From assembly GCA_030599585.1 (NCBI GenBank), contig JAUVNS010000009.1:1-64000 (forward strand): a stretch of 64,000 nt of DNA. The letters run 5' to 3'. Below are positions 1-46,284 of the stretch, piece by piece (position 1 is the stretch's first letter; each line of letters starts with the position of its first letter). Source of the DNA: Promethearchaeota archaeon (GTDB lineage: Archaea > Asgardarchaeota > Lokiarchaeia > Sigyniarchaeales > SOKP01). A program made the translations under genes and the position numbers. Under the pieces are notes generated by a model, which made no database searches, was not told the DNA's origin, and worked only from the letters and a program-made list of their open reading frames with translations.

Positions 1-66
1 ATTTTAAATAGGAACTTTGTGTATTATAAGCTAGTCCAATACTAATAACTTAAGAAGATACACAAA

Positions 67-723
67 ATGAGAGAAATTAGGTTTTCAAAACTTGGTATCC
101 TAATAGCGATATTTGTGATAATAGCAATTATTCTCTCATCCCTATTTCTCATTCTTTATCCTTATTATCCTGGTTATAGAGATGATGCTGTAGCCCTTAA
201 ACCTGCTATTTACTTATATCCCCAAGAAACAATGAAGATTAAAGTTTCTCTTTCAATTAATGGTGAAATTACAACAAGTGAGCCAGAATATAATAATGGA
301 TGGGATGTAGTAGTAGGACCGGGAGGTACTATTGACGATAGCTATGATTACTTATTTTACGAAGCGCGATTGAACTATTTAAAACCACCTGACGATGGTT
401 GGTGTGTTGAATACGACCATCTTGAAATATGGATGAATACCACGTTAAAGGAACTTGGATTAAATGAAAAAGAAAGTAGAGATTTTAAGGATTTTTGGTT
501 AGATTTTCACCCCATTGCTAATTATTACGAGATTAAATTATTATCAAAAGACTATTTAGATTTACATATGGGTTTAATTGTAGATCCTCAACCCGAGACA
601 ATAATCAGGGTTCTGCTAACATTTTCTCCTTACCAAAATGCAGTTGAAATAGATACTCCATTAATAACGACACCTATTCGTTCAGGTTTCACAGTCGTAG
701 AATGGGGTGGATTTATAATTTAA
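67..723 (+). CDS. Membrane-anchored conserved hypothetical protein (KPxIYLYP...VEWGG family)
   Basis: N-terminal TM helix; KPAIYLYP and C-terminal VVEWGG motifs of a widespread uncharacterised family. Confidence 0.7.
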   Translation: MREIRFSKLGILIAIFVIIAIILSSLFLILYPYYPGYRDDAVALKPAIYLYPQETMKIKVSLSINGEITTSEPEYNNGWDVVVGPGGTIDDSYDYLFYEARLNYLKPPDDGWCVEYDHLEIWMNTTLKELGLNEKESRDFKDFWLDFHPIANYYEIKLLSKDYLDLHMGLIVDPQPETIIRVLLTFSPYQNAVEIDTPLITTPIRSGFTVVEWGGFII

Positions 724-930
724 TTTTTACCAATGATAATTATATTATCAATGAAAATTCCATTAAAAAATAAAAAAAAAATTATTAAGCTTATTAAAGT
801 CTTTAATAAGAAGATAATGTTTTAAGATAATTCGAGCATTTTGTAATTAATAAATACCTACAATGAAAATTAGCTCTCGATTAACTATTGCTGATATTGT
901 AAAAAATAACACTAAAATAGGGGATTTAGG

Positions 931-2142
931 TTGGGATTAGATGTTAATATTGATGAAAAGAAAGTTCCAGAGTACATACTTCCAGATCCTCTAACTTGTC
1001 TTGATGGAACAAGAGTTAGTAGTAAAACTCTATGGTTCGAGAAAAGGGAACCTGAAATACTTGACCTTTTTGAGCGTTATATATATGGAAAGATGCCGGG
1101 AAAACCTGAAAAAATGTCCTTTGAAATTACATCCATAGATAAAAATGCGCTTAAAGGAAAGGCAACTCGTAAGGAAGTTTCTGTCGTTATGGAAAATTCC
1201 CAATCTACACTACAGATGGAAATTCTTATTTATATTCCTAATTTTCATCCAAAACCAGTTGCTAATTTTTTGGCTTTAAATTTTTATGGAAATCATTCAA
1301 TACATCAAGATCCAAATATTACACTATCAAAGCAGTGGGTGCCTAAAAGAAAGGCATACGGAATAAGAAAAAATCAAGCAACAGAAAATTCGCGAGGCGT
1401 GCTTTCTTATCGATGGCCTATTGAACTTATTATTGATCGCGGTTATGCTCTATCTACAATATACTGTGGCGATCTCGATCCGGATTTTGATGATGGGTTT
1501 CAAAATGGGGTACATCCATTATTTTATAAAAAAGGTCAAACCAAACCTGCTGCTGATGAATGGGGTACTATCGGAGCATGGGCTTGGGGATTAAGGCGGG
1601 CAATGGATTATTTTGAGGTTGATAACAATATAGATAACAACCGTGTAATTGTAATGGGTTTTTCACGTCTGGGAAAAGCAGCATTATGGGCAGGAGCAAT
1701 CGATAAGCGGTTTGCGTTAGTAATTTCTAATAATTCAGGTTGCGGAGGAGCAGCATTATATCGTCGAAAATTTGGTGAAACGATTTCACATATAAATAAC
1801 CAATTTCCCCATTGGTTCTGTGAGAATTTTAAGCAATTTATCGATAAGGAGGATGAACTCCCTGTAGATCAACATATGTTAATCTCATTAATAGCCCCTC
1901 GACCTGTTTATATTGCTAGTGCTGAAAAAGATCTTTGGTCCGACCCGCGAGGAGAATTTCTCTCTGCCAAATACGCAGACCCCGTATATAAAATGCTAGG
2001 AACCACCGGTCTTCAAGTAGATGAGATGCCGAAAACTCATCGGCCAATATTATCGGCTATAGGATACCATATCCGTGAGGGGGTGCATGAAGTTCTTAAA
2101 TATGACTGGGAAAGATACCTTGATTTTGCCGATTATCATTAG
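931..2142 (+). CDS. Carbohydrate esterase family 15 (glucuronoyl esterase-like)
   Basis: [14 protein letters not shown] nucleophile motif, [29 protein letters not shown]; TTG start after GGGG SD-like sequence. Confidence 0.85.
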
Positions 2143-2187
2143 CACATTCCAAAAATACTATCATTTTCAGACAAGTATTCAAACCTC

Positions 2188-4626
2188 TTACATAAAATCC
2201 AACATATCTGCGGTTTTAAATATCGCTTTTGATTCGTAGATTTCGGTATTTTGAGCTTCCCAAAAAATTTGAATACGCTTGATAAGATCTGGGGGCTGTT
2301 CAATTTTCCAATCGTTTGGAAGAACACTATTATAATAGGTTGTTCTAAACCTATGCCCAATTAACATCACAAATCCGCGATCAGTAGAAGTTCGAAAAAT
2401 TCGACCAGCAGCTTGAATTACTTTCATCATCCCAGGGTTTCGATAAGCGTATTCGAAACCTTTTTTCCATTTGAGATCATAATATTCTCGCATTAACTCT
2501 TGTTCCTTTGAATACGCGGGGAGCCCAGGACCAATAATAAATGCTCCAATGGCCATATCTCCTGTAAAGTCTACACCTTCGCTAAAAATTCCCCCATGGA
2601 CAGCGAGAAGAAGATGTTTATCGTCAGGATTTTGGAGTTTCTTTAAGTAATTTCTACGTTTGGCTTCACTCATTTTTCGTTCTTGCACTATGAGCTTAAC
2701 TGAGAGCGGGAGAGTTTCAATCTCCCTTTGGACAGCTTTAAGATAAGCGAATGAAGGAAAAAAAGCCAAATAGTTTCCTTCTTTAACATTTACGGTTTCA
2801 AAAATAATTGAGGCGATAAGACCGTACGATTCTCGACGGTCTTCATATTTAGTTGAGAGTTTGGGCATAATAAGATAAAGTCGGTTTTGTTGAGCAAAAG
2901 GAGAGAGATATTGAATTTTACGTGCTGAGGATGGATACCCTAACATTTTTTGGAAATATTCTAGAGGAAACAGAGTTGCTGATTGCATGATTACAGAGTG
3001 AAAACCTGCGATTTGTTTTTCGAGTTTTGGTGCTGCCGATTTACATAATATTTTGATTTTTCCATCTTTTATATACAATAATTCACTAAATTCAGGAGAG
3101 TTACTTTCTTTTAAGATAGTTGTGAACTGACGAAAATTTAAAACAAATTCCAAGACTTTTTCTTTTTTTCCAGGTTGAAATCCTTGTCGAGATGTGTAGG
3201 CTTGAATATAAGAAAAGATAAAATCTTCCAAGTCTTTTACTACTGCTCGGAAGAAGGTTTTATCAAATTTTACCAGAATTGGCTTTTTTATTGTTTTATC
3301 GGAGTATGGTTTAATCAAATCCAAAATGTAATTAGTTATCTGTTGATATATGTTAATTCCTATTTTCTCAATAGATTTTGGCATATGAAGTGATTGTAAA
3401 TAATTGCCAACATTAGAGAGGGATTCCATCGTTATTTCTGGAGAATAGTAAGTCATCGCTCGGAAGGGTAGATTATGAGCCTCGTCGACAATCAGTATGA
3501 TATTGTCATATTTTTGGTCAAAATATCGCTTCAATCTGATGAAAGGATGGAATACATAATTATAATCCCCCACTATTACATCGCAATGAAGAGAACAATC
3601 CAAAGAGATCTCAAAGGGGCAAACGGTATGAGCTTTTGCTACTTTTCGAATATATCGCGCATCTATGACTTGTTTAGTGAGCATTTCAGACACGATCTTA
3701 CCCAATGAAGCCTTATTGTAATTATCGAGGTAAGGACATAATGATCTTTCACAAGTAAAGGCACTATTTATGCACAATTTCTCTTTTGCAGTGAGAATAA
3801 TCGAATTAAATTGTGCCTTCTTTTTTGCAAATATCCGTAAAGTATCCCTGTAGATATGTTGTTGAGTAGTTTTTGAGGTAATCACGAATACATATAAATT
3901 ATTCTTTAACGCATATTTTAAAGCGGGAAAAAGAGTTCCAACGGTCTTTCCTACACCGGAGGGGGCTAAGAGCATTAATCGTTCTCTCTTCTGAATACAC
4001 TTAAGTACTTTTTTTATGATTTCCTCTTGATTAACTCTATGTTTCTCAAATGGAAAGACAACTGTTTTGTAACGTTCTCGCTGCTCAGATTTGATTTTTT
4101 GTGCCATTTCCCACTCGTTTAAGATAGTTTGACACTGTTTTATAATATATTCTACCAGATCTTGAGGAGGAACATCAATAATTTTGACTTCTTTAGTAAA
4201 AATGTCAATTAACACCAAATGACACCGAATCTTTTTCCCCAGCTGGAGAAAATAATGCCCATACAATAACAACTGTAGGCGATATTCCTCAGCAATTTCT
4301 GATTCAAGATCAAAGCCATCAAGATTCGTTACCGACTTAATTTCTTCAACAACTAAGATTCCCTTGCTTTCATAGGTGATGTCAGCACGCCCAGAGATTA
4401 TAAAGTTCCACCCTTGAACTTTTGTCTTCAACTTCACCAAGACTTCACGTTGGAAGGACTTTTTATTCTTTTTTTGATCTTTTTGATATAGCTGGTGAAT
4501 TTCAGTTCCTTTTGAGGCGCGAATGCGAGAAGGAATCCCCGTATTAGAAAAATTACGCTTTCTAGTTGCAAAAATTACATCTTTTATTGAGATATGGAAT
4601 TCTTTACTCTCCTTGATGACTTTCAA
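2188..4626 (-). CDS. Rad3/XPD/DinG-family Fe-S helicase with N-terminal PD-(D/E)xK (RecB/Cas4-like) nuclease domain
   Basis: APSGVGKT Walker A, DEAH box, four Fe-S Cys, QAAGRIFR motif VI; N-terminal GTEIH...GRAD...EIKS...QLLLY nuclease motifs. Confidence 0.85.
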   Translation of the reverse strand: MKVIKESKEFHISIKDVIFATRKRNFSNTGIPSRIRASKGTEIHQLYQKDQKKNKKSFQREVLVKLKTKVQGWNFIISGRADITYESKGILVVEEIKSVTNLDGFDLESEIAEEYRLQLLLYGHYFLQLGKKIRCHLVLIDIFTKEVKIIDVPPQDLVEYIIKQCQTILNEWEMAQKIKSEQRERYKTVVFPFEKHRVNQEEIIKKVLKCIQKRERLMLLAPSGVGKTVGTLFPALKYALKNNLYVFVITSKTTQQHIYRDTLRIFAKKKAQFNSIILTAKEKLCINSAFTCERSLCPYLDNYNKASLGKIVSEMLTKQVIDARYIRKVAKAHTVCPFEISLDCSLHCDVIVGDYNYVFHPFIRLKRYFDQKYDNIILIVDEAHNLPFRAMTYYSPEITMESLSNVGNYLQSLHMPKSIEKIGINIYQQITNYILDLIKPYSDKTIKKPILVKFDKTFFRAVVKDLEDFIFSYIQAYTSRQGFQPGKKEKVLEFVLNFRQFTTILKESNSPEFSELLYIKDGKIKILCKSAAPKLEKQIAGFHSVIMQSATLFPLEYFQKMLGYPSSARKIQYLSPFAQQNRLYLIMPKLSTKYEDRRESYGLIASIIFETVNVKEGNYLAFFPSFAYLKAVQREIETLPLSVKLIVQERKMSEAKRRNYLKKLQNPDDKHLLLAVHGGIFSEGVDFTGDMAIGAFIIGPGLPAYSKEQELMREYYDLKWKKGFEYAYRNPGMMKVIQAAGRIFRTSTDRGFVMLIGHRFRTTYYNSVLPNDWKIEQPPDLIKRIQIFWEAQNTEIYESKAIFKTADMLDFM

Positions 4627-4782
4627 TTTTTGTGATCACTAGCTCTAACAAATTTATTTACTATATTAAAAAGATGCCCCTCACTGAAATTTTAAATTAT
4701 TAATAAGAGATTAAGTCCCTAATTAACTACCAGATGTTTACTTCTATTAGGATTCGAGGTTTTACGAAAATGCGAGGTGGAG

Positions 4783-4804
4783 TGTGTTCCGGAGTTTTTA
4801 CTCC
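4783..4804 (+). repeat. Dispersed 22-bp repeat, copy 1 (TGTGTTCCGGAGTTTTTACTCC)
   Basis: Exact match to 5841-5862 and 9204-9225; internal inverted repeat GGAGT-TTTT-ACTCC. Confidence 0.9.
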
Positions 4805-4864
4805 AATTTTCTATTTTTTTCTGAAGTTATTAGTAAGGAAGAAATGTGAAGCCCGTAGGTCTTC

Positions 4865-5740
4865 TTATGATCGTTTCTTTTTACGTCTTTCTATCCATAA
4901 TGCTATGACACTTATTATTGCTACATATCCTAGGATGTTGGAAACGATCAATTCAATAGGGATAAATTCGGGAGTAGATCCGTAAAACCTAATTCCAATC
5001 TGTACGGTGTAGTTTTGTGCATCGTTCCATTCGCAGATAAACTTTTTTCCCCCTGTAATGTCTATAACTTGTCGTAAAATTTCTTGATTCCCCGTTATAC
5101 CAAATATGGGATTTCCACCGAATGCTTTATATTCCACTCTTTCCGTCGCGTTTCCTTTCCATAATTTAGCCGTATCTGAAGAATAGATCATGTAGAATAA
5201 ATTCCGAAAGCTTAATGGTTTATGTATCGAACCTTCGAACTGATATTTAACGACATATGTTTTATTTTCCAAAAGCGTTAAATTAGAAGTAATTAAGGTT
5301 ATTGGGCAATGGAAGTCAAATGCGGGTATAAAATCGATATTTACTCCCATACTTGGTAAAGCGTCTCCAGCAGTACTTACGATTTCAAAAGGGACTAGCG
5401 TGTCGTTTACAGACACTCCAAAAGTAGTATTTTCAACATCAAAACATAACGAGAACGGCAGGTTTATAGTGAGATTGGTTGGATTTTCAGGGTTGAATAA
5501 AGTATATGTCCCCTTAAAAGTTATTCCAATTTCGTTGATAAGATCTGTGGCGTTTAGGGTTATAGCTACGCTGGTGTTTAACAACAGGATGTTAGTATTA
5601 TTATTTTTAGGAAAAATATCTGCGATAAATTGGTCTGGTATAGGTGGAATGGAAGCGTTTAATTTAGGGTAAATTTTGATATTTACGGTGAGAATAAAGA
5701 GAGCGATGAGAATTACAGCGGTAAATTGAGATTTTTTCAT
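4865..5740 (-). CDS. Secreted/surface hypothetical protein with signal peptide and C-terminal TM anchor
   Basis: Hydrophobic N-terminus, many N-x-S/T sequons, C-terminal TM followed by RRKKKRS; GGTGA SD. Confidence 0.7.
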   Translation of the reverse strand: MKKSQFTAVILIALFILTVNIKIYPKLNASIPPIPDQFIADIFPKNNNTNILLLNTSVAITLNATDLINEIGITFKGTYTLFNPENPTNLTINLPFSLCFDVENTTFGVSVNDTLVPFEIVSTAGDALPSMGVNIDFIPAFDFHCPITLITSNLTLLENKTYVVKYQFEGSIHKPLSFRNLFYMIYSSDTAKLWKGNATERVEYKAFGGNPIFGITGNQEILRQVIDITGGKKFICEWNDAQNYTVQIGIRFYGSTPEFIPIELIVSNILGYVAIISVIALWIERRKKKRS

Positions 5741-5840
5741 AGTATCACCCTTACTACTCAGCTATTATGATGCATAAAGTCTTAATAAATCTATCGTTAG
5801 TAGGCTGAGGTATTTCAGATATGTAATCGCTTTATTAAAA

Positions 5841-5862
5841 TGTGTTCCGGAGTTTTTACTCC
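5841..5862 (+). repeat. Dispersed 22-bp repeat, copy 2
   Basis: Exact TGTGTTCCGGAGTTTTTACTCC. Confidence 0.9.
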
Positions 5863-5912
5863 CGATTTTATTGTATTTTTCTAGTTCATTAATAAAGAGT
5901 ATAATACTCGTT

Positions 5913-6413
5913 CTAATCCGGTTTTTTCTTCTTTAACCATTTTGGAACTTTAAAGTCACGAACGACAATGCAGATTCCTTGTTCCCAATCAGGATACGGC
6001 TTAATATCCAAAACAGGAGTGTCATTAAAAGCGTCAAGACCTCTAACCATAAGAATATTTTCCTTGCGATTTATAAGTTCAACTAAAGTTAAACCAATGG
6101 GATTTGTATGAATTGGGGCCCTTGTGGCAAAAATTCCTATTGGCTTTGCTCCTAGTTTTTTATTCGGATGATGTAAATATGCCGTATTCTTGATTTTATT
6201 CATCATAAAAATCACATAAATGTGTGAAAAATCCTCAATTCCATCCAAAGCCTTCGTAAGATTCTTATTGATAACTATCTTTGAAATTTGATTTCGACCC
6301 TTTATGTCGTCGTCGATAATATCTGATTTAATCAAGCCTATTGGAGTAATTAGGATGCTTTTTAAAAGTTCATGAGGAATTTCTTTCATAAGAATATTTA
6401 AGATTATCCTCAA
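5913..6413 (-). CDS. trmO: tRNA (t6A37)-N6-methyltransferase TrmO/TsaA family
   Basis: GIFATRAPIHTNPIGLT and GLDAFNDTPVLDIKPY signatures; true start probably downstream of the listed one. Confidence 0.85.
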   Translation of the reverse strand: MRIILNILMKEIPHELLKSILITPIGLIKSDIIDDDIKGRNQISKIVINKNLTKALDGIEDFSHIYVIFMMNKIKNTAYLHHPNKKLGAKPIGIFATRAPIHTNPIGLTLVELINRKENILMVRGLDAFNDTPVLDIKPYPDWEQGICIVVRDFKVPKWLKKKKPD

Positions 6414-6778
6414 AATATAATTTACTGGAAAACTTTATTTTCATAACTTATTTCTAAACTTCTAGCTTAACCTTTTTATTTTATTTTATTTATCTATTTC
6501 ACTACTAAGCTTAAAATAGGAAATTTCGCATTGATTGGTAAATTCAGTGTCTGATTTTCTTGAAAATTCCTTTGAAAAGACGAGAGAGAAAGTAAAAATA
6601 TTGGGATTTTCTCTGCTACGCCACTTTTTTTATAGTAAAGTCATATGAACTAACATATTATCACGATTCTTAGTGAAATTATTTAGTACCTCGAAAAGCT
6701 AAGAGTTTTAAATCAAAAAAAATAAATCACCTTTATGTTAGATGAAGAAATAAGATTAATCAGAGGTGAAATATTCTC

Positions 6779-7993
6779 GTGAACACGGAATCTAAGAAAC
6801 AACGGTTCCTCTTTCTCGATACTATAAAAGTCTTATTTACTATTCTCGTGATATTCCAGCACGTGAGGGTTACTTATGGTGGGTCGGGTGTGTGGTATTA
6901 TATTGAGGCACCTCCAGTAGATACTTTCAGTCTTATATTCTTTATAACTTTATCCTCGATTGGAGGTCTTTTTCAAGCCTCACTCATGGGATTATTCTTT
7001 TTAATGGGAGGTTATTTTACTCCTAAAAGTTACGATCGAAAAGGCGTCCGTTCCTTCTGGAAAGAACGACTTCTTCGTCTCGGTATTCCTCTCTTATTGT
7101 ATATTTTTCTAGTTAATCCTCTTTTGATTTATATTATTCATTCTTTAGGAATTCCAAATTATGGTTCCTTCCTAACACCGCAAGGAACTTTTGTAGACTA
7201 TTATTTAAGTCAATTCCAATCGCTCGAAGCATTTATACGCTTTCTTACAAGAACTGGTCCAATGTGGTTTCTCTACGTTTTATTAATTTTTACCGTAGTT
7301 TATACTCTTTGGCGTCAGGTAACAAAGATTGACTCAGTACAACGACGCATCCCAAAGGAGTTTTCAATCCCAAAATATTTCTATTTGCTCCTTTTCGCTA
7401 TTAGCTTAGGATTTCTTACTTTTTTAGTTCGCTTATTCTCTCCCATAGACAAATTTCCGCTGGGAATACCATTCGGATTTTTCACCATTTATCTCATGAT
7501 GTTCAGCGTTGGTGTCATCGCTGTTCGATATAATTGGATCGGAAAGATGACTAGACATCAAGTCAAAGTTTGGGCTATTACGATATTAGCTGCTTTTATA
7601 TTGCTTTATCTCTATGTCTTTCTTTTTCTGGGATTTGATTCAGATCTTAGTGTTTTCTTAGGAGGGCCCACTTTACACGCTCTTCTATTTGCAGTCGCAG
7701 AAAATGTCGTTGCTATGGGAATGATTTTTGTGTTACTTAAGATTTTTTACGCAAAATTCAACGATCAAGGAAAAATACTACGAAACCTATCCTCTAGCGC
7801 ATTTTATATGTACCTCATTCATCCTCTCGTCCTTGTCCCTGTATCCCTTGGATTTGCATTCATACCCCTTTTTCCTGCTATAAAACTAGCCATTGTATTT
7901 CCTTTAACAGTCATCCTTTGCTATTTGATAAGTCATTTTGTCCTCGAAAAAATTCATTTGAAAAAACACACGAGAGTTACTCAGAATAGTTAG
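6779..7993 (+). CDS. Acyltransferase family 3 (OpgC/MdoC-like) membrane protein
   Basis: FLDTIK...H, MGLFFLMGGYF, ERLLRLGIP, GPMWFL, YLIHP; about 10 TMs; GAGGTGA SD before GTG. Confidence 0.85.
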   Translation: MNTESKKQRFLFLDTIKVLFTILVIFQHVRVTYGGSGVWYYIEAPPVDTFSLIFFITLSSIGGLFQASLMGLFFLMGGYFTPKSYDRKGVRSFWKERLLRLGIPLLLYIFLVNPLLIYIIHSLGIPNYGSFLTPQGTFVDYYLSQFQSLEAFIRFLTRTGPMWFLYVLLIFTVVYTLWRQVTKIDSVQRRIPKEFSIPKYFYLLLFAISLGFLTFLVRLFSPIDKFPLGIPFGFFTIYLMMFSVGVIAVRYNWIGKMTRHQVKVWAITILAAFILLYLYVFLFLGFDSDLSVFLGGPTLHALLFAVAENVVAMGMIFVLLKIFYAKFNDQGKILRNLSSSAFYMYLIHPLVLVPVSLGFAFIPLFPAIKLAIVFPLTVILCYLISHFVLEKIHLKKHTRVTQNS

Positions 7994-8035
7994 AACATCT
8001 AAGCTATTCCAAAAACACGAGAAGTTATAGTGGTG

Positions 8036-8047
8036 GGAGTGTGTTCC
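8036..8047 (+). repeat. Half-copy (left arm) of the dispersed repeat
   Basis: GGAGTGTGTTCC identical to 4779-4790, then diverges after TTCC. Confidence 0.55.
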
Positions 8048-8063
8048 TGGTGTTAACAGTTTT

Positions 8064-9062
8064 TTAGTTGCTTGTACTTTTTAAAAAATCTAATAGCACT
8101 TTTGCTAATTCTTCACCCTTATCTTCTTGTAGAAAATGTCCAGCTCCTTTTATAGTAGTATGAGGTTGGTCTTTTGTTCCAGGTACACGAGCGTGAAACT
8201 CTTTATCCTGTCCCCGAGTGATTGGATCCATATCACTGAAGGTTGTTAAGAAAGGTTTATTCCATTTGGAGAAGACCTCTTTCCATGTTTTGTGATTTTC
8301 CTTTAGCTGAGTAGGTACTAAACTGGGCATTATTCTTGCACCTGCTTTATAACTATCATTAGGGAAAGGAGCATCATAGGCAGCCAAAACATCTGGAGTT
8401 AATTCAGTTTCAGTCCCATTTTGAATAATTTCACTAATTGGAAATTCTGGAGCAGTTTGAGAGTAGGCTACCCACCGAAGAAATGGTTTAATAGATTTTT
8501 TAGATGAATATTCATCACTATCCAAATCTTCTCGAGTTATATTACCTTGTCGTTTAACTAAAAAACGAAATAGAGATGGAAAGATTAAATTAATTAATGT
8601 GCCAAAATCTGGTAAACCAGTGTTGGCAGCTACGATTCTTGTGAACCGATCTGGTTCATTGGCAACAACTCGAAGTCCTATTAATCCCCCCCAATCCTGG
8701 CAAAATAAGGTGATTTCAGTTAAATCGAGTTTCCTTACGAAATCCGTGAATATATCTACTTGCATCTGATAAGTATAATCTTCTATACGTGTAAATTTAT
8801 CTGAACGTCCAAATCCTACTAAATCGGGAGCAATAATATGGTGTCCTGCTCCGGTTAAAATTGGAATCATCTTGCGATATAAATAACACCAAGAGGGTTC
8901 TCCATGCATGAGTAATATAGGTGCTTTTTCTGAGTTTCCTTCTTCCACATAATGAATTCTTATACCCTCAATTTCAACATAATGAGGAGCATAATTAAAT
9001 CCCGATAAATTCTCAAATCTACTATCTGGAGTCCTAAGTATTTCTCGATCCATTTTAATCAT
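8064..9062 (-). CDS. Haloalkane dehalogenase (DhlA/HLD-I-like alpha/beta hydrolase)
   Basis: LRTPDSRF, HGEPSW, QDWGG (Asp nucleophile), DMDPI, GHFLQED. Confidence 0.88.
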   Translation of the reverse strand: MIKMDREILRTPDSRFENLSGFNYAPHYVEIEGIRIHYVEEGNSEKAPILLMHGEPSWCYLYRKMIPILTGAGHHIIAPDLVGFGRSDKFTRIEDYTYQMQVDIFTDFVRKLDLTEITLFCQDWGGLIGLRVVANEPDRFTRIVAANTGLPDFGTLINLIFPSLFRFLVKRQGNITREDLDSDEYSSKKSIKPFLRWVAYSQTAPEFPISEIIQNGTETELTPDVLAAYDAPFPNDSYKAGARIMPSLVPTQLKENHKTWKEVFSKWNKPFLTTFSDMDPITRGQDKEFHARVPGTKDQPHTTIKGAGHFLQEDKGEELAKVLLDFLKSTSN

Positions 9063-9203
9063 TCAATTTTTTTTATTTGAATTATAGTTTTTCATAAATA
9101 ATGTTGGATTATCATTCACATGACCAACATACTCATAAATTGCTGTCTATTAATTTAACTTTTACTTTCTTGTCTAAAAATAAACAAATGAGAAATTATG
9201 GGT

Positions 9204-9225
9204 TGTGTTCCGGAGTTTTTACTCC
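9204..9225 (+). repeat. Dispersed 22-bp repeat, copy 3
   Basis: Exact TGTGTTCCGGAGTTTTTACTCC. Confidence 0.9.
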
Positions 9226-9425
9226 AAGCATTTTATATTTTGCCGATATCATATAGACTTTATTTCTGTTAAGATGTTCCGTTTCCTCGAAGAATGTCAG
9301 TTGAATATGTTCTTTTAATGCAGATTTATTACGTTTGACATAAGTTTAAATATCAACTTAACCGTTTAATTCTTATCGGAACGGTTTATCACTCCGTGGC
9401 GAATTAAGTATTGAGGTGAAATCTA

Positions 9426-10391
9426 TTGGAAGATTCTTTAATATTTTATGAAAAGGAAGGGGAACCTGCAGAAAAAACGTATAAAATTTTGTTCACTGGG
9501 TTGGATGGAGCAGGTAAAACAAGTATAATTTCAGCTCTCCATAGGGAATTCTCAAAAATTGCTTTACTTGAACCAACAAGGGGTGCTCAAAGGAGCAGTT
9601 TTAAATTGTTGGGAAGAGAAATCTCCGAATGGGATTTAGGAGGTCAAAAGAGTTATCTCATTTCCTACTTGAAAAACCCCAGCAAATATTTTGATGAGAC
9701 AGAAATCGCGATTTACGTTATTGACATATTAGATGGTTCTCGTATTAAAGAATCTCTTGGTTATTTGTATGACGTTGTTGATAAGTTCAAAGAATTGAAA
9801 ATTGAACCCCAAATCGTTATTTTCTTTCATAAATACGATCCTAAATTAATCCAAAGCGTTGAAAAACAAATAAAATCTGAAATACTTGCGTTAAATAAAG
9901 AAATTATCAAGAAAGTGGATTACGAGAAGCTCCAATTCTTTAGAACGTCAATATATAATCCTTATACAATCATGCATGCGATGTCTAAAATTCTACTTAA
10001 TTTATATCCAAAATCAGAGTTATTACAAAAAACGATTGATGAATTTACGAGAAAACTAGATTGTGAAGGGTTAATCATTGCCGATAAAAATTCGATTATT
10101 TTAGGTTCCTGCTTCAAAGATGATGAATCAAAAAAACTTTTGAGTAGCACAATTGCTTATTTTTTGACGCTTAACGATGTTTTTGAAGATATGGGACTAG
10201 AACAACAAGAAGATCAAATAGTTGTCAGAAAAATGGGAAAATATTTCTTGTTCAAACCAATCACCTTAAAAAAAACCCCTTTACCATACTATATGCTTGC
10301 ATTAAAAAGTCACGATCCGCTTGGACTCTATTTTCTTAACAAAGATTTTAATGCGTTTGTGAATATGTTCAACGATATTGTTAAGAGTTAA
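9426..10391 (+). CDS. Arf/Rag-like small GTPase with C-terminal roadblock/longin-like domain
   Basis: GLDGAGKT, WDLGGQ, HKYD, TSIY motifs; C-terminal alpha/beta domain; GAGGTGA SD before TTG. Confidence 0.85.
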   Translation: MEDSLIFYEKEGEPAEKTYKILFTGLDGAGKTSIISALHREFSKIALLEPTRGAQRSSFKLLGREISEWDLGGQKSYLISYLKNPSKYFDETEIAIYVIDILDGSRIKESLGYLYDVVDKFKELKIEPQIVIFFHKYDPKLIQSVEKQIKSEILALNKEIIKKVDYEKLQFFRTSIYNPYTIMHAMSKILLNLYPKSELLQKTIDEFTRKLDCEGLIIADKNSIILGSCFKDDESKKLLSSTIAYFLTLNDVFEDMGLEQQEDQIVVRKMGKYFLFKPITLKKTPLPYYMLALKSHDPLGLYFLNKDFNAFVNMFNDIVKS

Positions 10392-10392
10392 T

Positions 10393-10410
10393 TTCCGGAG
10401 TTTTTACTCC
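10393..10410 (+). repeat. Dispersed repeat, copy 4 (18-bp right part TTCCGGAGTTTTTACTCC)
   Basis: Exact 18-bp match starting 2 nt after the GTPase stop codon; followed by a T-rich tract. Confidence 0.88.
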
Positions 10411-10581
10411 AAACTTTTCTCTTTTTATTTTTTTTTTTAAATTCCAAATAATTATCGTTTTCTGACAAAAACGTACAAGATTTAAATACCTACTAAACTA
10501 GTTATTACTCACATCGAAATCTAACTTAAAAACCAGCTCAAAAACATATTTAAATTAAAAATTAAAATAGAGGTGAAAAAT

Positions 10582-10911
10582 ATGCCATATTTAATTAGTT
10601 TTGCGAAATGGCCGAGTCACAAATCGGCTGAAGTGATGAAAAAAGCTATTGAATCTGCTAAGAAATTTCCTGAAGATAAGTCCTTCGGAGAGGATTTAGT
10701 TTCTGACAATGCGATTAAAGCATCTGAAGATGGGGTAAGATCCCTGTCTGTTCTCAATGTAAGTAAAGGCAAACTTGAGGAGGCGTATCTACGTGGGCAA
10801 GCTGTTGGGAATTTATTTGCTTTGGGTATTGACGGTTTTGAATATACACTAGAGGTTTGGTCAACGCTAGAGGAGGCTTATGGGTCGATTGGTCAAAAAC
10901 CACCTGAATAG
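10582..10911 (+). CDS. Hypothetical protein (small alpha/beta)
   Basis: ORF 10573-10911; GAGGTGA SD at 10570-10576 favours ATG at 10582. Confidence 0.7.
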   Translation: MPYLISFAKWPSHKSAEVMKKAIESAKKFPEDKSFGEDLVSDNAIKASEDGVRSLSVLNVSKGKLEEAYLRGQAVGNLFALGIDGFEYTLEVWSTLEEAYGSIGQKPPE

Positions 10912-11474: not shown

Positions 11475-12506
11475 TTAGATATATCTTTGGCTTACATTTG
11501 TTTGAAAAACTTGTTCTTGCCGATCAGAGCTACTGCTTCCTCCTCTTTTTGAAACGATATAGAACTGGACTAAAGAATTTTCGTGAACTAGGGTGTTGCC
11601 TCTCCATTTTTTGTCTTTCGACTCAAATTCGACTACTTCACCGAGTCCTATACCTTTTCTTTCGGAAAAATTCAACTTTAACTTTTGTAATGCCTTTATC
11701 AAGTGCTTATCGTATTGGCCTGACATTTCCTTATAGGATTTATCTTTAAATCTCAGCGATTCTATCGCAAAAGCTTTAAGGATGTCTTTGTTCATTGTTT
11801 CCCATACTTTAGGATTTGCGTAAAACTCTATGCCAATAAACTCACCGTTGATAAAAGTTGCTATTCCGCATTGTTTTTCTTGGTTTTTAAAAGAATTTAC
11901 TATCTCGTCTGTTTCCTTATCAATATTTTCTGTCATTTCAAGATAGCTTTGAGATGGGGCAATATTAGCGTTATAGTTCATTTCAGTTCTATAAGCTTGT
12001 ATTTCGTTCCAAACCGACCCCTGACCTACAGAAGATATAGCTGAGTAGGCAACATTAGGATGTAATCTTGTATTAGAAGATTTAAATCCTTTTTCTTTGC
12101 GATAACTCCATCTAGATTGTTCGACACACTTAGCTGGAACGGTATATTTTTGTTCCATAGGACCGTTATTGCCACCAGATAAGTTTTGTTTTCTTCCAGC
12201 AGCTAATAGGATTGGTTCCCATATTGTCCTATCTTGTTTTCCACCATGGACTGTTACGCCGAAAGGGATCAATACTTGTTTATCGCTATTATTAACTACT
12301 TCTAATTGACTGACGGTATCTGTTTCGTTTATACTTACTAATCCAAGGTCCTCAGCTTCTTTAACGCTAATAAAATCTAAGGTTTTACCCTTATAGATAA
12401 TTGGGACAACTGTCATATTACCGTGAGATTGAGGTTTTCCAAGTTCTAACATTTCTGAAGGATTTTCAAAGAGCATTTCTACTATTTGAACGCTTACATT
12501 TTTCAT
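11475..12506 (-). CDS. ARPP-1 (DUF6569) domain protein
   Basis: GGKQDR, CVEQSRW and QGSVW motifs typical of the family. Confidence 0.75.
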   Translation of the reverse strand: MKNVSVQIVEMLFENPSEMLELGKPQSHGNMTVVPIIYKGKTLDFISVKEAEDLGLVSINETDTVSQLEVVNNSDKQVLIPFGVTVHGGKQDRTIWEPILLAAGRKQNLSGGNNGPMEQKYTVPAKCVEQSRWSYRKEKGFKSSNTRLHPNVAYSAISSVGQGSVWNEIQAYRTEMNYNANIAPSQSYLEMTENIDKETDEIVNSFKNQEKQCGIATFINGEFIGIEFYANPKVWETMNKDILKAFAIESLRFKDKSYKEMSGQYDKHLIKALQKLKLNFSERKGIGLGEVVEFESKDKKWRGNTLVHENSLVQFYIVSKRGGSSSSDRQEQVFQTNVSQRYI

Positions 12507-12931
12507 AATTTACTTTCCTCCTTTTTTTTTTTACTAACACTTTTTGCTTTATGCTTTTCTTCCACCATTACTTTTTCGTAAAGGGGGTCTACAAATTGTT
12601 TTACGACGTCTTTACCGTTCTTAGTAAGTTCGACACCATAAGAGATTTTTAATTTTCCTTCCTTGGTTACTTTGTTAACTATCGCACCTTTAAATTTTAA
12701 TGCGTCCTCTTGGGACACTTCCATTTTTTGCGTTTTGATAATTCCTCCTCTCTTTAAGGCGCCTAAGTGATAATTAATGTTCTGACGATCAACTTCTAAT
12801 TTATTTGCTAAGTCTATTGGTCTTTGAGAGCTTGTAGATAATTCTCTTACTATATCTACTCTCATAGAATTTCGAAACACGAGACCGACCTTTTCGAAAA
12901 TTGGTTTTTTTTTTTCTTTTTTTTCAGGCAT
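12503..12931 (-). CDS. ArsR-family winged-HTH regulator
   Basis: MRVDIVREL...RPIDLANKLEVDRQNINYHLGALKRGGII; 4-nt overlap with the ARPP-1 gene. Confidence 0.8.
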   Translation of the reverse strand: MPEKKEKKKPIFEKVGLVFRNSMRVDIVRELSTSSQRPIDLANKLEVDRQNINYHLGALKRGGIIKTQKMEVSQEDALKFKGAIVNKVTKEGKLKISYGVELTKNGKDVVKQFVDPLYEKVMVEEKHKAKSVSKKKKEESKL

Positions 12932-13115: not shown

Positions 13116-13337
13116 TTATATTTTGATACTAACCTTTTCTTGAGTTAAGAGCTTCGAAGGATTTAAACTTCTTCTTGTGAAAACTAAGGTTGAAGGGCCT
13201 AAATGTTCTTGATTTGTATCAATTCTGAAATTTGGTCTTTTTAAAAACAAATTCAAAATTTTTAACTCGTTTAATGTTAAATTTAAGGATTGTAGAAATT
13301 TCGGGTGACGATAGTCTTCCCAACTGATATTAAGCAT
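13116..13337 (-). CDS. Small hypothetical protein
   Basis: ATG-started 73-aa ORF filling an otherwise empty gap. Confidence 0.4.
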   Translation of the reverse strand: MLNISWEDYRHPKFLQSLNLTLNELKILNLFLKRPNFRIDTNQEHLGPSTLVFTRRSLNPSKLLTQEKVSIKI

Positions 13338-13542
13338 AATACTATTGTTGTGATCTATTTAAATTATAAACACAATGACTATGAGAGTTTTCTATTATTT
13401 TTACAGAAAGGAACGTAATTATCTCATTTCGAATAATTTAACTTAATTCAAACTTTTTCTAGCGCAGTAGTTTCCCTTTAACATACCAATATTGTAAAGT
13501 AATTTTATTAGATTAAATCCAAAATAATAAACGAAATTTTGA

Positions 13543-15021
13543 ATGAAAATGGATAGTGACAACATAATCGACGTATTCCTACACCCTAAGTCGGTAGCTG
13601 TTATTGGTGCTTCAAAAAAATTAACAAAAGGCGGATTTCGGATTGCTACTAATCTTATTACTAACAATTTCAGAGGTAAAGTTCATCTTATAAACCCTAA
13701 TGCGGAAGGAAAGCTCTACGATATAGAATTTAAAAAGAGTATTTTAGATGTCGATGACGAGGTTGACATAGCAATATTTTACGTTCCAAATCGACTTATT
13801 CCAGACATCATAAAGGATTGCGTGAAAAAAGGAGTAAAAGGAGCGATAATTGAAGCATCGGGTTTCGAAGAAGTTGGCGAAAAAGGTCTCGAATTAAAAA
13901 AAAAAATACTTGAGATAACAGACAATTTTACTAAATTAAGGATAGTTGGTCCTAATTGTATGGGTCTTAGTACTATCAATGGAGACAGCGATAGTAACGA
14001 AAAAGAAGGTTTTTTTTCAGGATTTGGTGTTTTTTCTACGTATAAGAGAGGAAACATTGCGTTGATTAGTCAATCGGGGATGCTTAATGGCGGTTATTTA
14101 ATGCACGTAATGACGAAATATCCAAATTTAGGATTTCGATATTCCTGTTCGATCGGAAACAAGATGGATTTGAGCGAAATTGAATTTCTGGAATATATGA
14201 TCGAGGACGATACCGTAAATGTTATAGCAATATACTTAGAATCGTTTAAAGACTCAAGAAAATTTATTGAATTATGCAAAAAAGCTAGGTCTATGCCAAA
14301 TAAGACCGTTATTCTGCTTAGAGGTGGAGTTACGCCTCAAGGTCAAAAAGCAACTCGAAGTCACACAGGTTCTTTAGCAGAAAATTCTAACTTAATAGAC
14401 GGGATCGTTAAACAATCAGGAGTAATTAATGCTAACAATTTTTACGAGTTATTTCAATATGCGCGCACTTTCTCGTTAATGTACTTATCAAATAAAACGC
14501 TCCCTAAGAAAGGTAACGCCTCGTTTGTGGCAGGATCCGGAGGAGCAGGAACGATTACAGCGGATCTCACTTTTAAATACGGCTTAAAATTTCCTATTCT
14601 TGGCGAGAAAACTTACGCTGCTCTCGTTGAAGTATTTCCCGAGTGGATGCCTCCAAACAACTTTGCGTTTGTAGATATATGGCCGGCAATGGAAAAAGCA
14701 ATGATGAATAATGTAAAACCCGAGGTGGTAACATCTCGAGTGTACGAAGCTTTATTGAAAGACTCTAACATTGAAGGTATTTTCAACATGATGTTTTGCT
14801 CTCGACAGTTTAGAGCTATGAATAATGTCGACGATATCATAGTCAACGCAAATCGAGCTTCAAAACCGATATTCTTTTGGTTAATTGGCGAGGCAAAGGA
14901 AGTTGGGAGAATCTCCAAAAAATTAGCTAAACATAATCTACCTAATTTTCCCAGCTTAGAAGAGATGGTTAAAAATTTTAGTATTTTAGTACACAAATCA
15001 AAGAGTATGAATCTCTCTTAA
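13543..15021 (+). CDS. Acyl-CoA synthetase (NDP-forming), alpha-subunit-like
   Basis: SVAVIGAS CoA-binding fold, GPNCMG, SQSG, SIGNKMD, SHTGSLA phospho-His. Confidence 0.88.
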   Translation: MKMDSDNIIDVFLHPKSVAVIGASKKLTKGGFRIATNLITNNFRGKVHLINPNAEGKLYDIEFKKSILDVDDEVDIAIFYVPNRLIPDIIKDCVKKGVKGAIIEASGFEEVGEKGLELKKKILEITDNFTKLRIVGPNCMGLSTINGDSDSNEKEGFFSGFGVFSTYKRGNIALISQSGMLNGGYLMHVMTKYPNLGFRYSCSIGNKMDLSEIEFLEYMIEDDTVNVIAIYLESFKDSRKFIELCKKARSMPNKTVILLRGGVTPQGQKATRSHTGSLAENSNLIDGIVKQSGVINANNFYELFQYARTFSLMYLSNKTLPKKGNASFVAGSGGAGTITADLTFKYGLKFPILGEKTYAALVEVFPEWMPPNNFAFVDIWPAMEKAMMNNVKPEVVTSRVYEALLKDSNIEGIFNMMFCSRQFRAMNNVDDIIVNANRASKPIFFWLIGEAKEVGRISKKLAKHNLPNFPSLEEMVKNFSILVHKSKSMNLS

Positions 15022-22667: not shown

Positions 22668-24431
22668 ATGGCTGAAGAATACGATTACCTTTTTAAATCT
22701 ATCGTGGTAGGAGATGGTGGTGTCGGTAAAACAGCACTTACACTCCGATTTTCGAAAGGCTTTTTTACTGAAGATTATAAAATGACGATCGGTGTTGATT
22801 TCCACGTAAAAACGATCTCAATTGATACTCTTGAAGGCCCGATCAAATGTAAACTCCAACTCTGGGATACCGGCGGTCAAGAACGATTTAGTTCTATAAG
22901 ACCCATGTATTATAGAGGATCACTCGGTTCAATCCTCGTCTTCGATCTTACGAATTCTGCAAGTTTTGAACATTTACCACAGTGGATCGAAGAAGTCAGG
23001 GCTAACATAAAATCTGATATACCTGTATTACTAATTGGCAATAAAAGCGATTTAACTGACCAAAGGGCTGTTTCAATTGAAGAAATTAACAATTTTACAA
23101 GAGATTTTAACTTATATTATATGGAGACGTCTGCTAAAACGGGTGACGGCGTCGGAGATTGTTTTTACATTCTCGCTTGCTTGATGATAGGACAAGGAGT
23201 TCCTGACCAATTAATCGATAGCACAACCGTTTTCGCTCCAGGACAGATTATTATAGGAAGTGAACCCATCGAAAAGCCAGAAGTTCAACCTACAATACCT
23301 CAAAAAGCGTTGTCAGCACCATCGGTTCCGGAACCAGTCCCAATTAACACCCAACAAAAACCCGAACCCGAACTTGAATATGAAGCACCTCCAGTACCAG
23401 AACCAAAAATAACGTACCCGAAAGAACCCACACCTAGTTTTGAACCCGAACCCGAGCTTGAATATGAAGCTCCCCCAGTACCAGAGCCTGCTTCTGTGTT
23501 TCGACCTCCAGCTAATCCAGAAATTTTTACACCCGAACCAACAGACATAGAATTTAAAACGCCTGATCAGATTATAGCTGAGAAATCTCAGCCTCCAGAA
23601 CAAGATAGCGAATCTTATAAACCAAAAACTATACCTTTTACATCAAATGTTCCAATCCCGGCACCTACTCCTAAAGAATTTCAAACACGGAAAACAGAAA
23701 AACCCACGGAGAGTTCTTCAATTCAAACTCCATTCCGCGTCACGGAAAGAGAAGATTCACCTAAACCACGACCTGCATCTATGACAATTGAACAAACCCC
23801 CCAACCACAACAAGAAATAGTTGTTGAGCCGCCATTTTTTCAAGACTCCGCTTCCCAACCTGCATCTTCTGAATCGTTAGTCGACTACATGCCCCAAACA
23901 ATGATATCTAAAAAAGAAATGAAAAAATTAGCTAAAGAAAAAAAGAAAGAAGAGAAGGAAAACGCAAAAATCGAAAAAGAAAAGAAAAATTCTAATAAAC
24001 GAGAGAAACAAGGGGAGCTATTTGAAGCGATGAAGACATCAAAAAAAAGTAAAAAACAAAAAAAGGTTGATGGTGACGGTGAGATACCCGAACAGATGTC
24101 GCCTCAAGTATCTCCGAGTTCCGAAACCAGTTCATTGTTCCAAGCTTTAACTAAAAGAACGGAAGAAATCCCAGCGGAAAGTAGCGCATCCTTATTTCCT
24201 TTTACAGCTACAAAAAGGGTTGACGAAGAAGAGAAATCTAAATTACGAATAATTCCTAACGTAGCAGATATAGATAGCAATTTCACATCGTTCACAGCAA
24301 TTACATCCTCTCATTCCGTGCAAGAAGAAAAACAAAAAGAGAAGAAAAAAGATCTACTAATTTGCGAACAATGCGGAACAATGTTATCTTCCGATTACGC
24401 TTATTGTAATAAATGCGGTAATAAACTCTAA
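22668..24431 (+). CDS. Rab-like GTPase with long Pro/Glu-rich disordered tail and C-terminal zinc ribbon
   Basis: YDYLFK, GDGGVGKT, IGVDF, WDTGGQERF, YYRG, NKSD, ETSAK; CEQC...CNKC at the C-terminus. Confidence 0.9.
   Translation: MAEEYDYLFKSIVVGDGGVGKTALTLRFSKGFFTEDYKMTIGVDFHVKTISIDTLEGPIKCKLQLWDTGGQERFSSIRPMYYRGSLGSILVFDLTNSASFEHLPQWIEEVRANIKSDIPVLLIGNKSDLTDQRAVSIEEINNFTRDFNLYYMETSAKTGDGVGDCFYILACLMIGQGVPDQLIDSTTVFAPGQIIIGSEPIEKPEVQPTIPQKALSAPSVPEPVPINTQQKPEPELEYEAPPVPEPKITYPKEPTPSFEPEPELEYEAPPVPEPASVFRPPANPEIFTPEPTDIEFKTPDQIIAEKSQPPEQDSESYKPKTIPFTSNVPIPAPTPKEFQTRKTEKPTESSSIQTPFRVTEREDSPKPRPASMTIEQTPQPQQEIVVEPPFFQDSASQPASSESLVDYMPQTMISKKEMKKLAKEKKKEEKENAKIEKEKKNSNKREKQGELFEAMKTSKKSKKQKKVDGDGEIPEQMSPQVSPSSETSSLFQALTKRTEEIPAESSASLFPFTATKRVDEEEKSKLRIIPNVADIDSNFTSFTAITSSHSVQEEKQKEKKKDLLICEQCGTMLSSDYAYCNKCGNKL
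23361..23488 (+). repeat. Intragenic duplication encoding PEPELEYEAPPVPEP twice
   Basis: About 44-nt near-identical copies at 23361-23404 and 23445-23488. Confidence 0.85.
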
Positions 24432-33524: not shown

Positions 33525-34106
33525 CTAATTGATTGATAAATCAAGTTTTTCAATTACTACAATTTTTTCTTTTAGAAATTGAATCATTTCTTGATTATCT
33601 TGAGCTTCTAATGGACCACTACAATTGGGGCACTTGAAATTTAATTCAAAAGCGGAGTCAAAGTTAAATTTTAAGGTCGAATCTGGGCAATTCTTACATA
33701 CAAAAAAGTAATTATTTTCCTCGAACTTTAACCGTTCCCTTAGTTTTGTCTCAACTGTTCTCTTTTTTTCCATTAGGATTTCTTCGAATAAGTCAAATTC
33801 ATGCCACCAATAATATATAAACCAACCCGTAGATTTATCGCGTATCCTCCTAAATTGAGCTAATTTCCCACTATACAACTTGTAGAGCGTTTTGCGAACA
33901 GTATTTAATTTTAACACTTCAACACCGTTTTCTTCAAAAAATAATTCTGGATTTAACTCTTTCATGCGTGCTTTAATTTTTTCCGTTATTCCCTCATCTG
34001 TGATATCTTCTTCTTCAGAATTTAATAATTCTATCCCGACTTCGATAGCAATATCTCCGGCTATAACGAATAAAAAGGTCCTTAGTAATGGGCTTAACTC
34101 CTTCAT
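33525..34106 (-). CDS. tfe: Transcription factor E (TFE alpha)
   Basis: LNTVRKTLYKLY, RDKSTGWFIYYW, CKNC...FKCPNC. Confidence 0.93.
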   Translation of the reverse strand: MKELSPLLRTFLFVIAGDIAIEVGIELLNSEEEDITDEGITEKIKARMKELNPELFFEENGVEVLKLNTVRKTLYKLYSGKLAQFRRIRDKSTGWFIYYWWHEFDLFEEILMEKKRTVETKLRERLKFEENNYFFVCKNCPDSTLKFNFDSAFELNFKCPNCSGPLEAQDNQEMIQFLKEKIVVIEKLDLSIN

Positions 34107-34209
34107 TATGTTCTGTCTCTTATGATTTCACTATTTAGTATAAATTTTAATCTATTATAAAAGTTAAATTTTGTGAATTGTGTTAAAAAGGACCTAAGGG
34201 TCCAGTTCA

Positions 34210-43926: not shown

Positions 43927-44016
43927 GCCTTTGTGGCTTAGTCGTAGAGCGACTGATTCGTAAAATCTTTGATTCGAATCATCAGTAGGCCGGGGGTTCA
44001 ACTCCCCCCAAAGGCT
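43927..44016 (+). tRNA. tRNA-Thr(CGU) with an 18-nt canonical intron (37/38; 43963-43980)
   Basis: GCCTTTG/CAAAGGC acceptor, ACTGA/TCAGT anticodon stem, BHB TTCG-TAA...CGAA-TCA, GGGGG-TTCAACT-CCCCC T-arm. Confidence 0.93.
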
Positions 44017-44020
44017 CTAG

Positions 44021-46124: not shown

Positions 46125-46209
46125 GCAGGAGTTGCCAAGCCTGGTCAACGGTGCTAGACCGAGGCTCTAGTCTCATAGGAGTTCGAGGGTTCGAATCCCT
46201 CCTCCTGCA
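46125..46209 (+). tRNA. tRNA-Leu(GAG), long variable arm, C at position 33
   Basis: GCAGGAG/CTCCTGC acceptor with A73, CTAGA-CCGAGGC-TCTAG anticodon arm, GAGGG-TTCGAAT-CCCTC T-arm. Confidence 0.9.
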
Positions 46210-46284
46210 CTTCTTATTAAATTTTAATCTGCATAGAACTTAAATTAACATAGACAAATAAAAGTTAAAAGATATATTAAAAAG

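Follow-up and report, generated by a model that had tools for sequence, protein, structure and literature searches.

The window analyzed here is the first 64,000 nucleotides of contig JAUVNS010000009.1 from a Promethearchaeota archaeon (Lokiarchaeia; assembly GCA_030599585.1, denoted G000, with other G-numbers designating related genomes and L-numbers the loci or contigs compared). It contains a 22-nt repeat located between unrelated accessory genes, which an earlier note on this DNA had interpreted as a site-specific recombination site or a mobile-element end that captures one- or two-gene modules. Comparison with the relatives identifies the motif as the outer base of the pre-23S rRNA processing stem, i.e., the 3′ end of the pre-23S trailer, and the window as the distal end of a large array of trailer copies behind the only 23S gene of the genome. 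As judged from the loci compared, the blocks between the copies behave as cassettes that are gained, lost, and reordered at the copies. The contribution of the present analysis lies in joining the window to the 23S gene, in an empty allele for the exact interval, and in a map of the crossovers.

In the window, the 22-mer is exact at positions 4783, 5841, and 9204, its 18-nt right part is located at 10393-10410, and its 12-nt left arm, GGAGTGTGTTCC, is found at 8036 and at 4779 as well; the sites listed in the earlier note were all recovered by sequence search. With up to three mismatches allowed, the 22-mer has four matches in the window, compared to none in 100 shuffles. Precisely these five sites, and no further copy between 10.5 and 64 kb, are detected by a profile hidden Markov model (HMM) based on 250 copies from other genomes, and all five are intergenic and on the + strand, as had been stated before. 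The first trailer remnant (4759-4825) consists of a short left arm, the core TGTGTTCC (4783-4790), the hairpin GGAG-TTTTT-ACTCC (4791-4804), and a T tract, while the second (5841-5877) has the core, hairpin, and T tract without the left arm. The fourth (9189-9241) has a TATGGGT-type left arm, as in the intact trailer of G000, followed by core, hairpin, and T tract, and the fifth (10393-10440), which is the shortest, begins at TTCC and retains the hairpin and T tract. The third (8020-8075) had been described as a broken half-copy; it has a GGTGGGAG-type left arm and the full core (8040-8047), and only the right arm differs, being hairpin-less and ending in a T tract. This right arm and T tract move together with the dehalogenase cassette. 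All exact matches of the 22-mer in named genomes are in metagenome-assembled genomes (MAGs) of Promethearchaeota (Lokiarchaeia).

The only 23S rRNA gene of G000 is located on the + strand of another contig (C3:65805-69172), where the first copy of the motif lies about 140 nt past the mature 23S end and an inverted partner is present in the leader of the gene. In G000, the pairing is between GGAACACAAC of the leader and GTTGTGTTCC of the trailer, and the corresponding pair is AGAACATAC/GTATGTTCT in G020, G008, G026, and G016 and GGAACATAC/GTATGTTCC in G036. Two positions of this pairing are compensatory, being G:C/C:G in G000, A:U/U:A in the four relatives, and mixed in G036. Further inside the stem, a canonical bulge-helix-bulge (BHB), composed of a 3-nt bulge, a 4-bp helix, and a 3-nt bulge, is present in six of six genomes; this element is a known processing signal of archaeal pre-rRNA (Juettner et al., PMC7038931). 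It is on the basis of the leader pairing, the compensatory changes, and the BHB further in that we assign the motif to the outer base of the stem. At its end, the trailer is arranged in the order stem base, 5-bp hairpin, T tract, and the T tract looks like a transcript end with a terminator-like pattern. The hairpin is clade-specific, as other congeners, and also many array copies, have the core and T tract without it. The motif, being the 3′ end of the 23S precursor, is thus by origin a processing-stem strand with a terminator-like end. The earlier note overlooked this origin. The intact copy corresponds to the outer base of the 23S-flanking stems known from archaeal pre-rRNA processing (PMC7038931), with the difference that 24 extra copies here lack a leader partner of their own and act as DNA exchange points.

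Some further features of the rRNA region may be mentioned. The 23S gene is 3368 nt long, with large variable insertions near its 3′ end and a short extra hairpin near C3:67660 that is missing in L281. A 128-nt doublet of two cores occurs at C3:69315-69474 and 72609-72772, and its spacer holds GTTGTGTTCCTTTG, a perfect leader complement, such that in this lineage the stem may end at either of two places in the trailer. An orphan 76-nt piece of the 23S 3′ end (-64 to +10) is fused before a short open reading frame at C26:126264-126339, far from the array. The Rfam search did not find a 5S rRNA.

The last 126 nt of C3 are 100% identical to the first 126 nt of the window (1-126), so that the window is the distal end of the 23S array; the overlap ties it to the 23S gene and the first 36 kb of the array, and window position p corresponds to C3 position 105183 + p. 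The array extends over about 46 kb, from the 23S end to window position 10410, and comprises the intact trailer and 24 5′-truncated copies, all on the + strand (18 found on C3 by the HMM, one at C3:93024, and five in the window). The extent of 4779-10410 given in the earlier note was therefore far too small, since the array starts about 41 kb upstream of 4779. Over the 4.85 Mb of G000, the motif is found in the C3 cluster and in the window, with two further copies on C23 and one on C22, and all of them share one orientation; this clustering and polarity, which the earlier note had proposed to check, exclude a dispersed genome-wide regulatory motif, as the copies are limited to the 23S array and three outliers and never occur in both orientations. 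Applied to 81 further loci, 80 of which are metagenomic, a less strict detector yields 207 sites oriented like the query and 0 in the opposite orientation, with a background of 6 per Mb and with one site per locus oriented by construction.

The genes upstream of the 23S gene are syntenic in four relatives; the downstream flank ranges from 3.3 to 49 kb and its cargo differs. The variable region ends at a stable distal anchor (window 13116-15021), composed of a 73-aa gene (-) and a CoA-ligase-like gene (+), and G000 has 49.1 kb between the 23S end and this anchor, compared to about 3.3-3.5 kb in G008 and G016. Arrays are present in G002, G010, G011, G014, G016, G020, G023, G027, G031, and G034 and in the sister genus, and about ten congeners with an assembled trailer have no array detectable within 7-20 kb. 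G112, considered as a complete genome, lacks a full 23S gene and gave no information on this point. There is no identity gradient along the G000 array. No array was found behind the 16S gene and no 16S-trailer copies apart from one tRNA match, and viral contigs contain no exact match of the motif.

A few copies lie off the array. The cassette at C3:104679-105155, composed of a 99-aa gene and a short trailer copy, is present again with 83% identity at C22:126520-126996, away from the 23S gene, and once more in G002:C56 (L172), in both cases near the same 187-aa gene; the off-array cassette is a displaced array fragment. On the 89 kb contig C23, a subtilase gene lies between two trailer copies (C23:83844-85981; L003:9845-11982). 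This contig is related to the large mobile-element-like regions C12, C49, C52, and parts of C20, C24, and C32, and regions of this type carry RPA-like, XPG/FEN1, and Mrr genes; C23 is possibly a cassette carrier, or else co-binned DNA. A search for the subtilase cassette in the array of a relative gave one homologue (G143, 75%) with no core nearby. Two contigs binned in the sister genus (G153:C23 and C175; L161, L164) have TGTGTTCC-type copies and cassettes in common with the present genus, reflecting either cross-genus exchange or mis-binning.

The exchange of blocks is seen most directly in the metagenomic contig L261, in which the left flank of site 4783 (95.7%, 509 nt) continues directly into the right flank of site 10393 (92.5%, 521 nt). 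Both matches extend into one and the same site, and window 4805-10410 is missing; by this alignment, L261 is the empty allele for almost the exact interval of the earlier finding. The right end of block 67-4626 and the 4783 site thus recur there with another downstream neighbor, the gene that in the window starts at 10573. Other blocks are relocated: L273 contains the dehalogenase block 8032-9241 (95.2% over 1211 nt) flanked by different cassettes, namely two blocks whose G000 counterparts are about 20 kb away, and in L229 a pair of sites encloses block 4760-5869 (86.6% over 1117 nt) next to other neighbors. L229 and L233 are 99.99% identical over 6.9 kb and diverge exactly at a core, on the 23S-proximal side. 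Among the internal ends of shared blocks with at least 93% identity, 32 of 52 fall from -80 to +40 of a core (6% of the sequence), a statistic for which the ends are not independent and the loci were chosen by the motif. The gene gain and loss at repeat boundaries that the earlier note had suggested looking for is accordingly found, and its view of the copies as recombination points bounding one- or two-gene modules is borne out. The arrays of G020 and G016 each contain one TGTGTTCC-type copy although the trailers of these two genomes are of the TATGTTCT type, and these foreign-type copies point to exchange between species.

To locate the crossovers, 293 sites were compared in pairs according to their shared or different upstream and downstream cargo. 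Pairs with the same upstream and different downstream cargo exceed the random level of similarity as far as +10 and drop to it from +11, and pairs with the same downstream and different upstream cargo stay near the random level to the left of the core and become similar from +8/+11 onward. The left arm thus goes with the upstream cargo and the right arm with the downstream cargo, with a switch between -1 and +11, which in these alignments centers on the shared 11-nt core TGTGTTCCGGA. The earlier remark that copies break at TTCC agrees with this result, in that left and right arms occur in different combinations on the two sides of the TTCC core; the left-arm and right-arm types are independent (21/7 vs 15/6, Fisher P=1.0). 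About seven long-armed pairs, however, switch further upstream, 20-70 nt from the core, where the partners have other patches of sequence in common (L257/L268, L266/L275/L291, L271/L296, G000/L246, L249/L271, and L250/L284).

The left ends of the copies are scattered over about 270 nt (-130 to +143 relative to the mature 23S end) without a common start, reaching in G000 and relatives from 130 nt inside the mature 23S to the core TTCC. A fixed attachment boundary inside the 23S gene was rejected, as the longest copies start at -130, -123, -119, -116, -114, -64, -62, etc., and so was an origin by reverse transcription or as a BHB product, as the left ends do not coincide with the BHB cut. The junction between cargo and tail is usually identical in all copies of a cassette, with few exceptions. 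Given these scattered left ends, the crossovers upstream of the core, the dispensable hairpin, and the lack of a dedicated recombinase in the searches made, neither mobile-element ends nor a proven site-specific system is supported. The array also differs from REP, IS200-IS605, and HUH-mobilized repeats, which involve a TnpA or RAYT gene and an essential hairpin, as the hairpin is absent from many copies.

The established identity of the repeat, its place behind the only 23S gene, its polarity, the inherited variable left junctions, and the exchange of blocks at the copies are best accommodated, in our opinion, by a two-step model, which we consider fairly probable, in which the array is built by recombination that uses the conserved rRNA tail as a portable short-homology arm. 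In the first, rare step, a DNA fragment with a gene and its promoter would be joined illegitimately at any position within the last ~130 nt of the 23S or within the trailer, yielding a cassette whose left junction is fixed and heritable and whose right side carries a piece of the tail. In the second step, which would occur often, cassettes would excise, integrate, and reorder via any two tail copies, the intact one included, either by a single crossover with a circle or by a two-ended exchange with incoming DNA of a relative. The crossover would fall in whatever the partners share, mostly the invariant TGTGTTCCGGA core, and every insertion would restore a complete trailer, spare the rRNA, and displace older cassettes outward. 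The core is invariant across species because it must pair with the 23S leader, so that rRNA processing keeps it constant and makes it a homology arm portable across species. The T tracts probably also insulate the cargo or terminate its transcription.

Several observations weigh against this model. Some exchanges seem to need only 11-27 nt of identity (the GTPase cassette; L246/L277), which is short for RadA-type recombination, and some short arms may come from later erosion, as in the F20 cassette. Many congeners with the same tail type show no detectable array over 7-20 kb, which homology alone leaves unexplained. No clean native flank with microhomology was found for the birth of a cassette; a GTGAGAT microhomology at the F20 cassette junction was discarded, since the "native" G020 flank also belongs to an array and could represent a copy that has eroded. 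A test for mosaic 23S genes among four relatives gave P=0.075, the 99.99% identical pair L229/L233 could be a short-read chimera at the repeat, and the block-end statistic carries the selection described above.

The short identities, together with the sharp switch of linkage within the 11-nt core, the independence of the arm types, the mobility of short-armed cassettes, the patchy distribution of arrays across the genus, and the gene between two copies on the mobile-element-like C23, would also be expected if a recombinase acting in trans (XerA, a mobile-element integrase, or an unrecognized enzyme) used TGTGTTCCGGA as its crossover core, the rest of the tail being passive and eroding. We regard this as the less probable explanation, though one with a real chance. 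The core is also the longest stretch common to all copies, so that homology predicts the same switch profile, and the upstream switches are left unexplained by a recombinase. Conserved inverted binding arms are lacking, and the hairpin is dispensable. As to the enzyme, neither the array nor its vicinity encodes a tyrosine or serine recombinase, Cas1, or an HUH transposase, consistent with the earlier statement that the window has no recombinase, and a search of all of G000 with PF00589, PF00239, and PF07508 placed no integrase in the array. The tyrosine recombinases of G000 are XerA (C31:928-1854) and a second enzyme (C32:210 kb), the latter being encoded in a mobile-element-like region about 200 kb away; they score 95 and 40 bits, compared to the IntI cut-off of 265 (TIGR02249), and one passes the XerA cut-off, such that the orthologue in G000 is XerA and neither enzyme qualifies as IntI. 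Six array-bearing relatives (G011, G014, G027, G031, G002, and G034) have a single tyrosine recombinase, just like the array-less congeners, and the array-bearing G020 has none assembled. The HUH family Y1_Tnp is absent from G000 and present in 2 of 42 congeners, and Cas1 is likewise absent from G000, where the repeat length varies, unlike the constant repeat of CRISPR and casposon arrays. A system in which the 11-nt core is truly site-specific, i.e., an integron analogue without its own integrase, served in trans by a host or mobile-element recombinase and shuffling cassettes across species with C23-like carriers, has in our estimate the same limited chance of being correct as the recombinase acting in trans; if true, Asgard archaea would collect promoter-bearing cassettes, including eukaryote-like GTPase and LRR genes, across species.

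The scattered left ends and the right end fixed near the T tract could alternatively mean that each copy is the scar of an independent event, either a 23S-anchored homology-facilitated illegitimate insertion or a template switch at the rRNA terminator, and is not reused. The first copies are not fresh duplicates of the intact trailer, lineage types are mixed, and the same cargo sometimes has different junctions. We nevertheless find this explanation distinctly unlikely, as most cassettes keep their left junction in different neighborhoods at 88-99% identity, and the empty allele L261 weakens it further; the inherited left junctions and the location of both block ends in copies require that the copies are reused. 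One-step insertion may still be how a cassette is born in the first step of the homology-driven model.

An explanation at the RNA level, in which the copies derive from reverse-transcribed pre-rRNA ends or are kept for leader pairing or for termination of cargo transcripts, is very improbable. Copies that are truncated at the 5′ end and intact at the 3′ end resemble retro-copies, they can pair with the leader (-19 to -30 kcal/mol, vs -32 for the intact trailer), same-strand genes often end shortly before a copy (median 71 nt to the core), and the genome has two reverse transcriptases. These are, however, encoded on other contigs, the copies are confined to the rRNA flank and never inverted, and their left ends are off the BHB cut, only one G000 copy including the BHB strand. 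The cargo, moreover, is present in both orientations and keeps 100-250 nt of upstream DNA, from which it follows that it is derived from DNA and not from mRNA. An assembly or binning artefact, suggested by the MAG contamination of 8.9% and by the many contigs that end in or near arrays, is scarcely credible, as the copies are mutually different with unique flanks and the same architecture and cassettes recur in a dozen independent MAGs and 80 metagenome contigs at 85-99% identity.

Among known systems, the array works like an Rhs displacement array, although it is not an rhs locus. For the C-terminal displacement arrays of Rhs (and MafB), excision of a circle and re-entry by a single crossover through homologous recombination have been proposed (Jackson et al. 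2009, PMC2935791), which is the mechanism favored here; in both cases an intact gene is followed by same-direction 3′ fragments of variable length, each with unrelated sequence, and there is no dedicated recombinase. The present array, by contrast, is anchored on a non-coding rRNA tail, of which its copies share 11-270 nt, and it carries whole genes with promoters in either orientation instead of the silent protein tips there. The ssrA islands of Dehalococcoides (PMC3146451) and the tRNA-Lys island fGI-2 of Methylopumilus (PMC10872708) similarly grow by tandem accretion of accessory genes downstream of an RNA gene present in one copy, and direct repeats of the 3′ end of that gene delimit them. 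The repeats of those islands are, however, fixed pieces of ~20 bp inside the mature RNA with a defined insertion point, whereas the present repeat covers the transcribed spacer and terminator region of the 23S, its left ends vary, and the cassettes are small (median 821 nt between sites). The ssrA islands have serine-integrase modules, and none of the present cassettes has an integrase. Thus, the co-oriented downstream repeats of such islands are found here, and the fixed crossover boundary and encoded integrase are not.

Integrons and clusters of attC sites lacking integron integrases (CALINs), including the archaeal ones (Ghaly et al. 2022, PMC9668308), which are enriched in Asgard archaea, share short accessory cassettes, co-oriented sites, and reordering with the array. 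They differ from it in that no IntI and no attC-type fold are present here and that the cargo lies in both orientations with its own upstream regions; that paper does not mention rRNA. The only fold found is the dispensable 5-bp hairpin, the folding z-scores are -1.0 to +0.6 in three of the four window copies tested, and an Rfam search of the array gave no match besides the 23S, all of which agrees with the earlier description of the sites as unlike classic attC sites. HeimM2 of Heimdallarchaeum (Wu et al. 2022, PMC8813620) also represents accessory DNA beside an rRNA gene in an Asgard archaeon, but it is a single 8-kb element beside the 16S with a homing-endonuclease-like gene, and no rRNA-tail array was described. 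A literature search found no description of 23S-tail arrays, many subscription papers being outside its reach.

The gene-capture arrays known at tRNA and tmRNA ends and in integrons are both integrase-driven, whereas Lokiarchaeia use a sequence conserved by rRNA processing as the exchange point for small accessory cassettes, apparently without an integrase. The array is a concrete site where Asgard genomes gain and shuffle genes, such as those of Rag/Arf-like GTPases, LRR, TIR, and TPR proteins, and a ShosTA-like pair, and it accounts for MAG breaks and gene loss beside the 23S. The crossover map provides a test, core only vs homology length, between site-specific and homology-driven systems.

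The cargo of the window is unrelated from one interval to the next, as described before. Upstream of the first site, block 67-4626 encodes a 218-aa protein (67-723, +), a glucuronoyl-esterase-like protein (931-2142, +), and a fusion of a Cas4-like nuclease with a DinG/XPD helicase (2188-4626, -); the best PADLOC match of the latter is type IV DinG (E 4e-100), in a genome without Cas1. Between the sites lie a 291-aa protein with hydrophobic ends and no Pfam match (4865-5740, -), a TrmO N-terminal-domain protein with a TrmO_N match (5913-6413, -), an Acyl_transf_3 membrane acyltransferase (6779-7993, +), a haloalkane-dehalogenase-like hydrolase with an alpha/beta hydrolase match (8064-9062, -), and a Rag/Arf-like GTPase with a Gtr1_RagA/Arf match and its own conserved upstream region (9426-10391, +). 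The best solved relatives of the hydrolase are haloalkane dehalogenases (E 1e-99), and a 90%-identical copy of the acyltransferase is found in G002 on a 15-kb stretch without trailer copies. The GTPase cassette is followed by the same short remnant in G027 and by no such remnant in G002, G014, G011, and G024; one array of G011 holds two Rag/Arf-like GTPase cassettes (G011:C101:25145-26119 and 33888-34853). Beyond the last site, a 112-aa protein is encoded at 10573-10911 (+), whose orthologue in G016 lies with its upstream region directly after the intact 23S trailer. An ARPP-1 protein and an HTH regulator (11475-12931, -) represent old distal cargo and are found at this place in many, not all, relatives. 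Genes before a site are on the + strand in 35 and on the - strand in 23 cases, and after a site the numbers are 37 and 28, respectively.

Inside the array on C3, a PRTase and DprA pair (C3:76538-78637; L001:10539-12638) matches the ShosTA defense system; a role of DprA as a competence gene was rejected, since it adjoins the PRTase and matches ShosA/ShosT. In the rest of the window, tRNA-Tyr (43927-44017) and tRNA-Leu (46125-46210) have no trailer copies nearby, and an intragenic 46-nt repeat pair at 23359-23488 encodes a Pro/Glu-rich linker.

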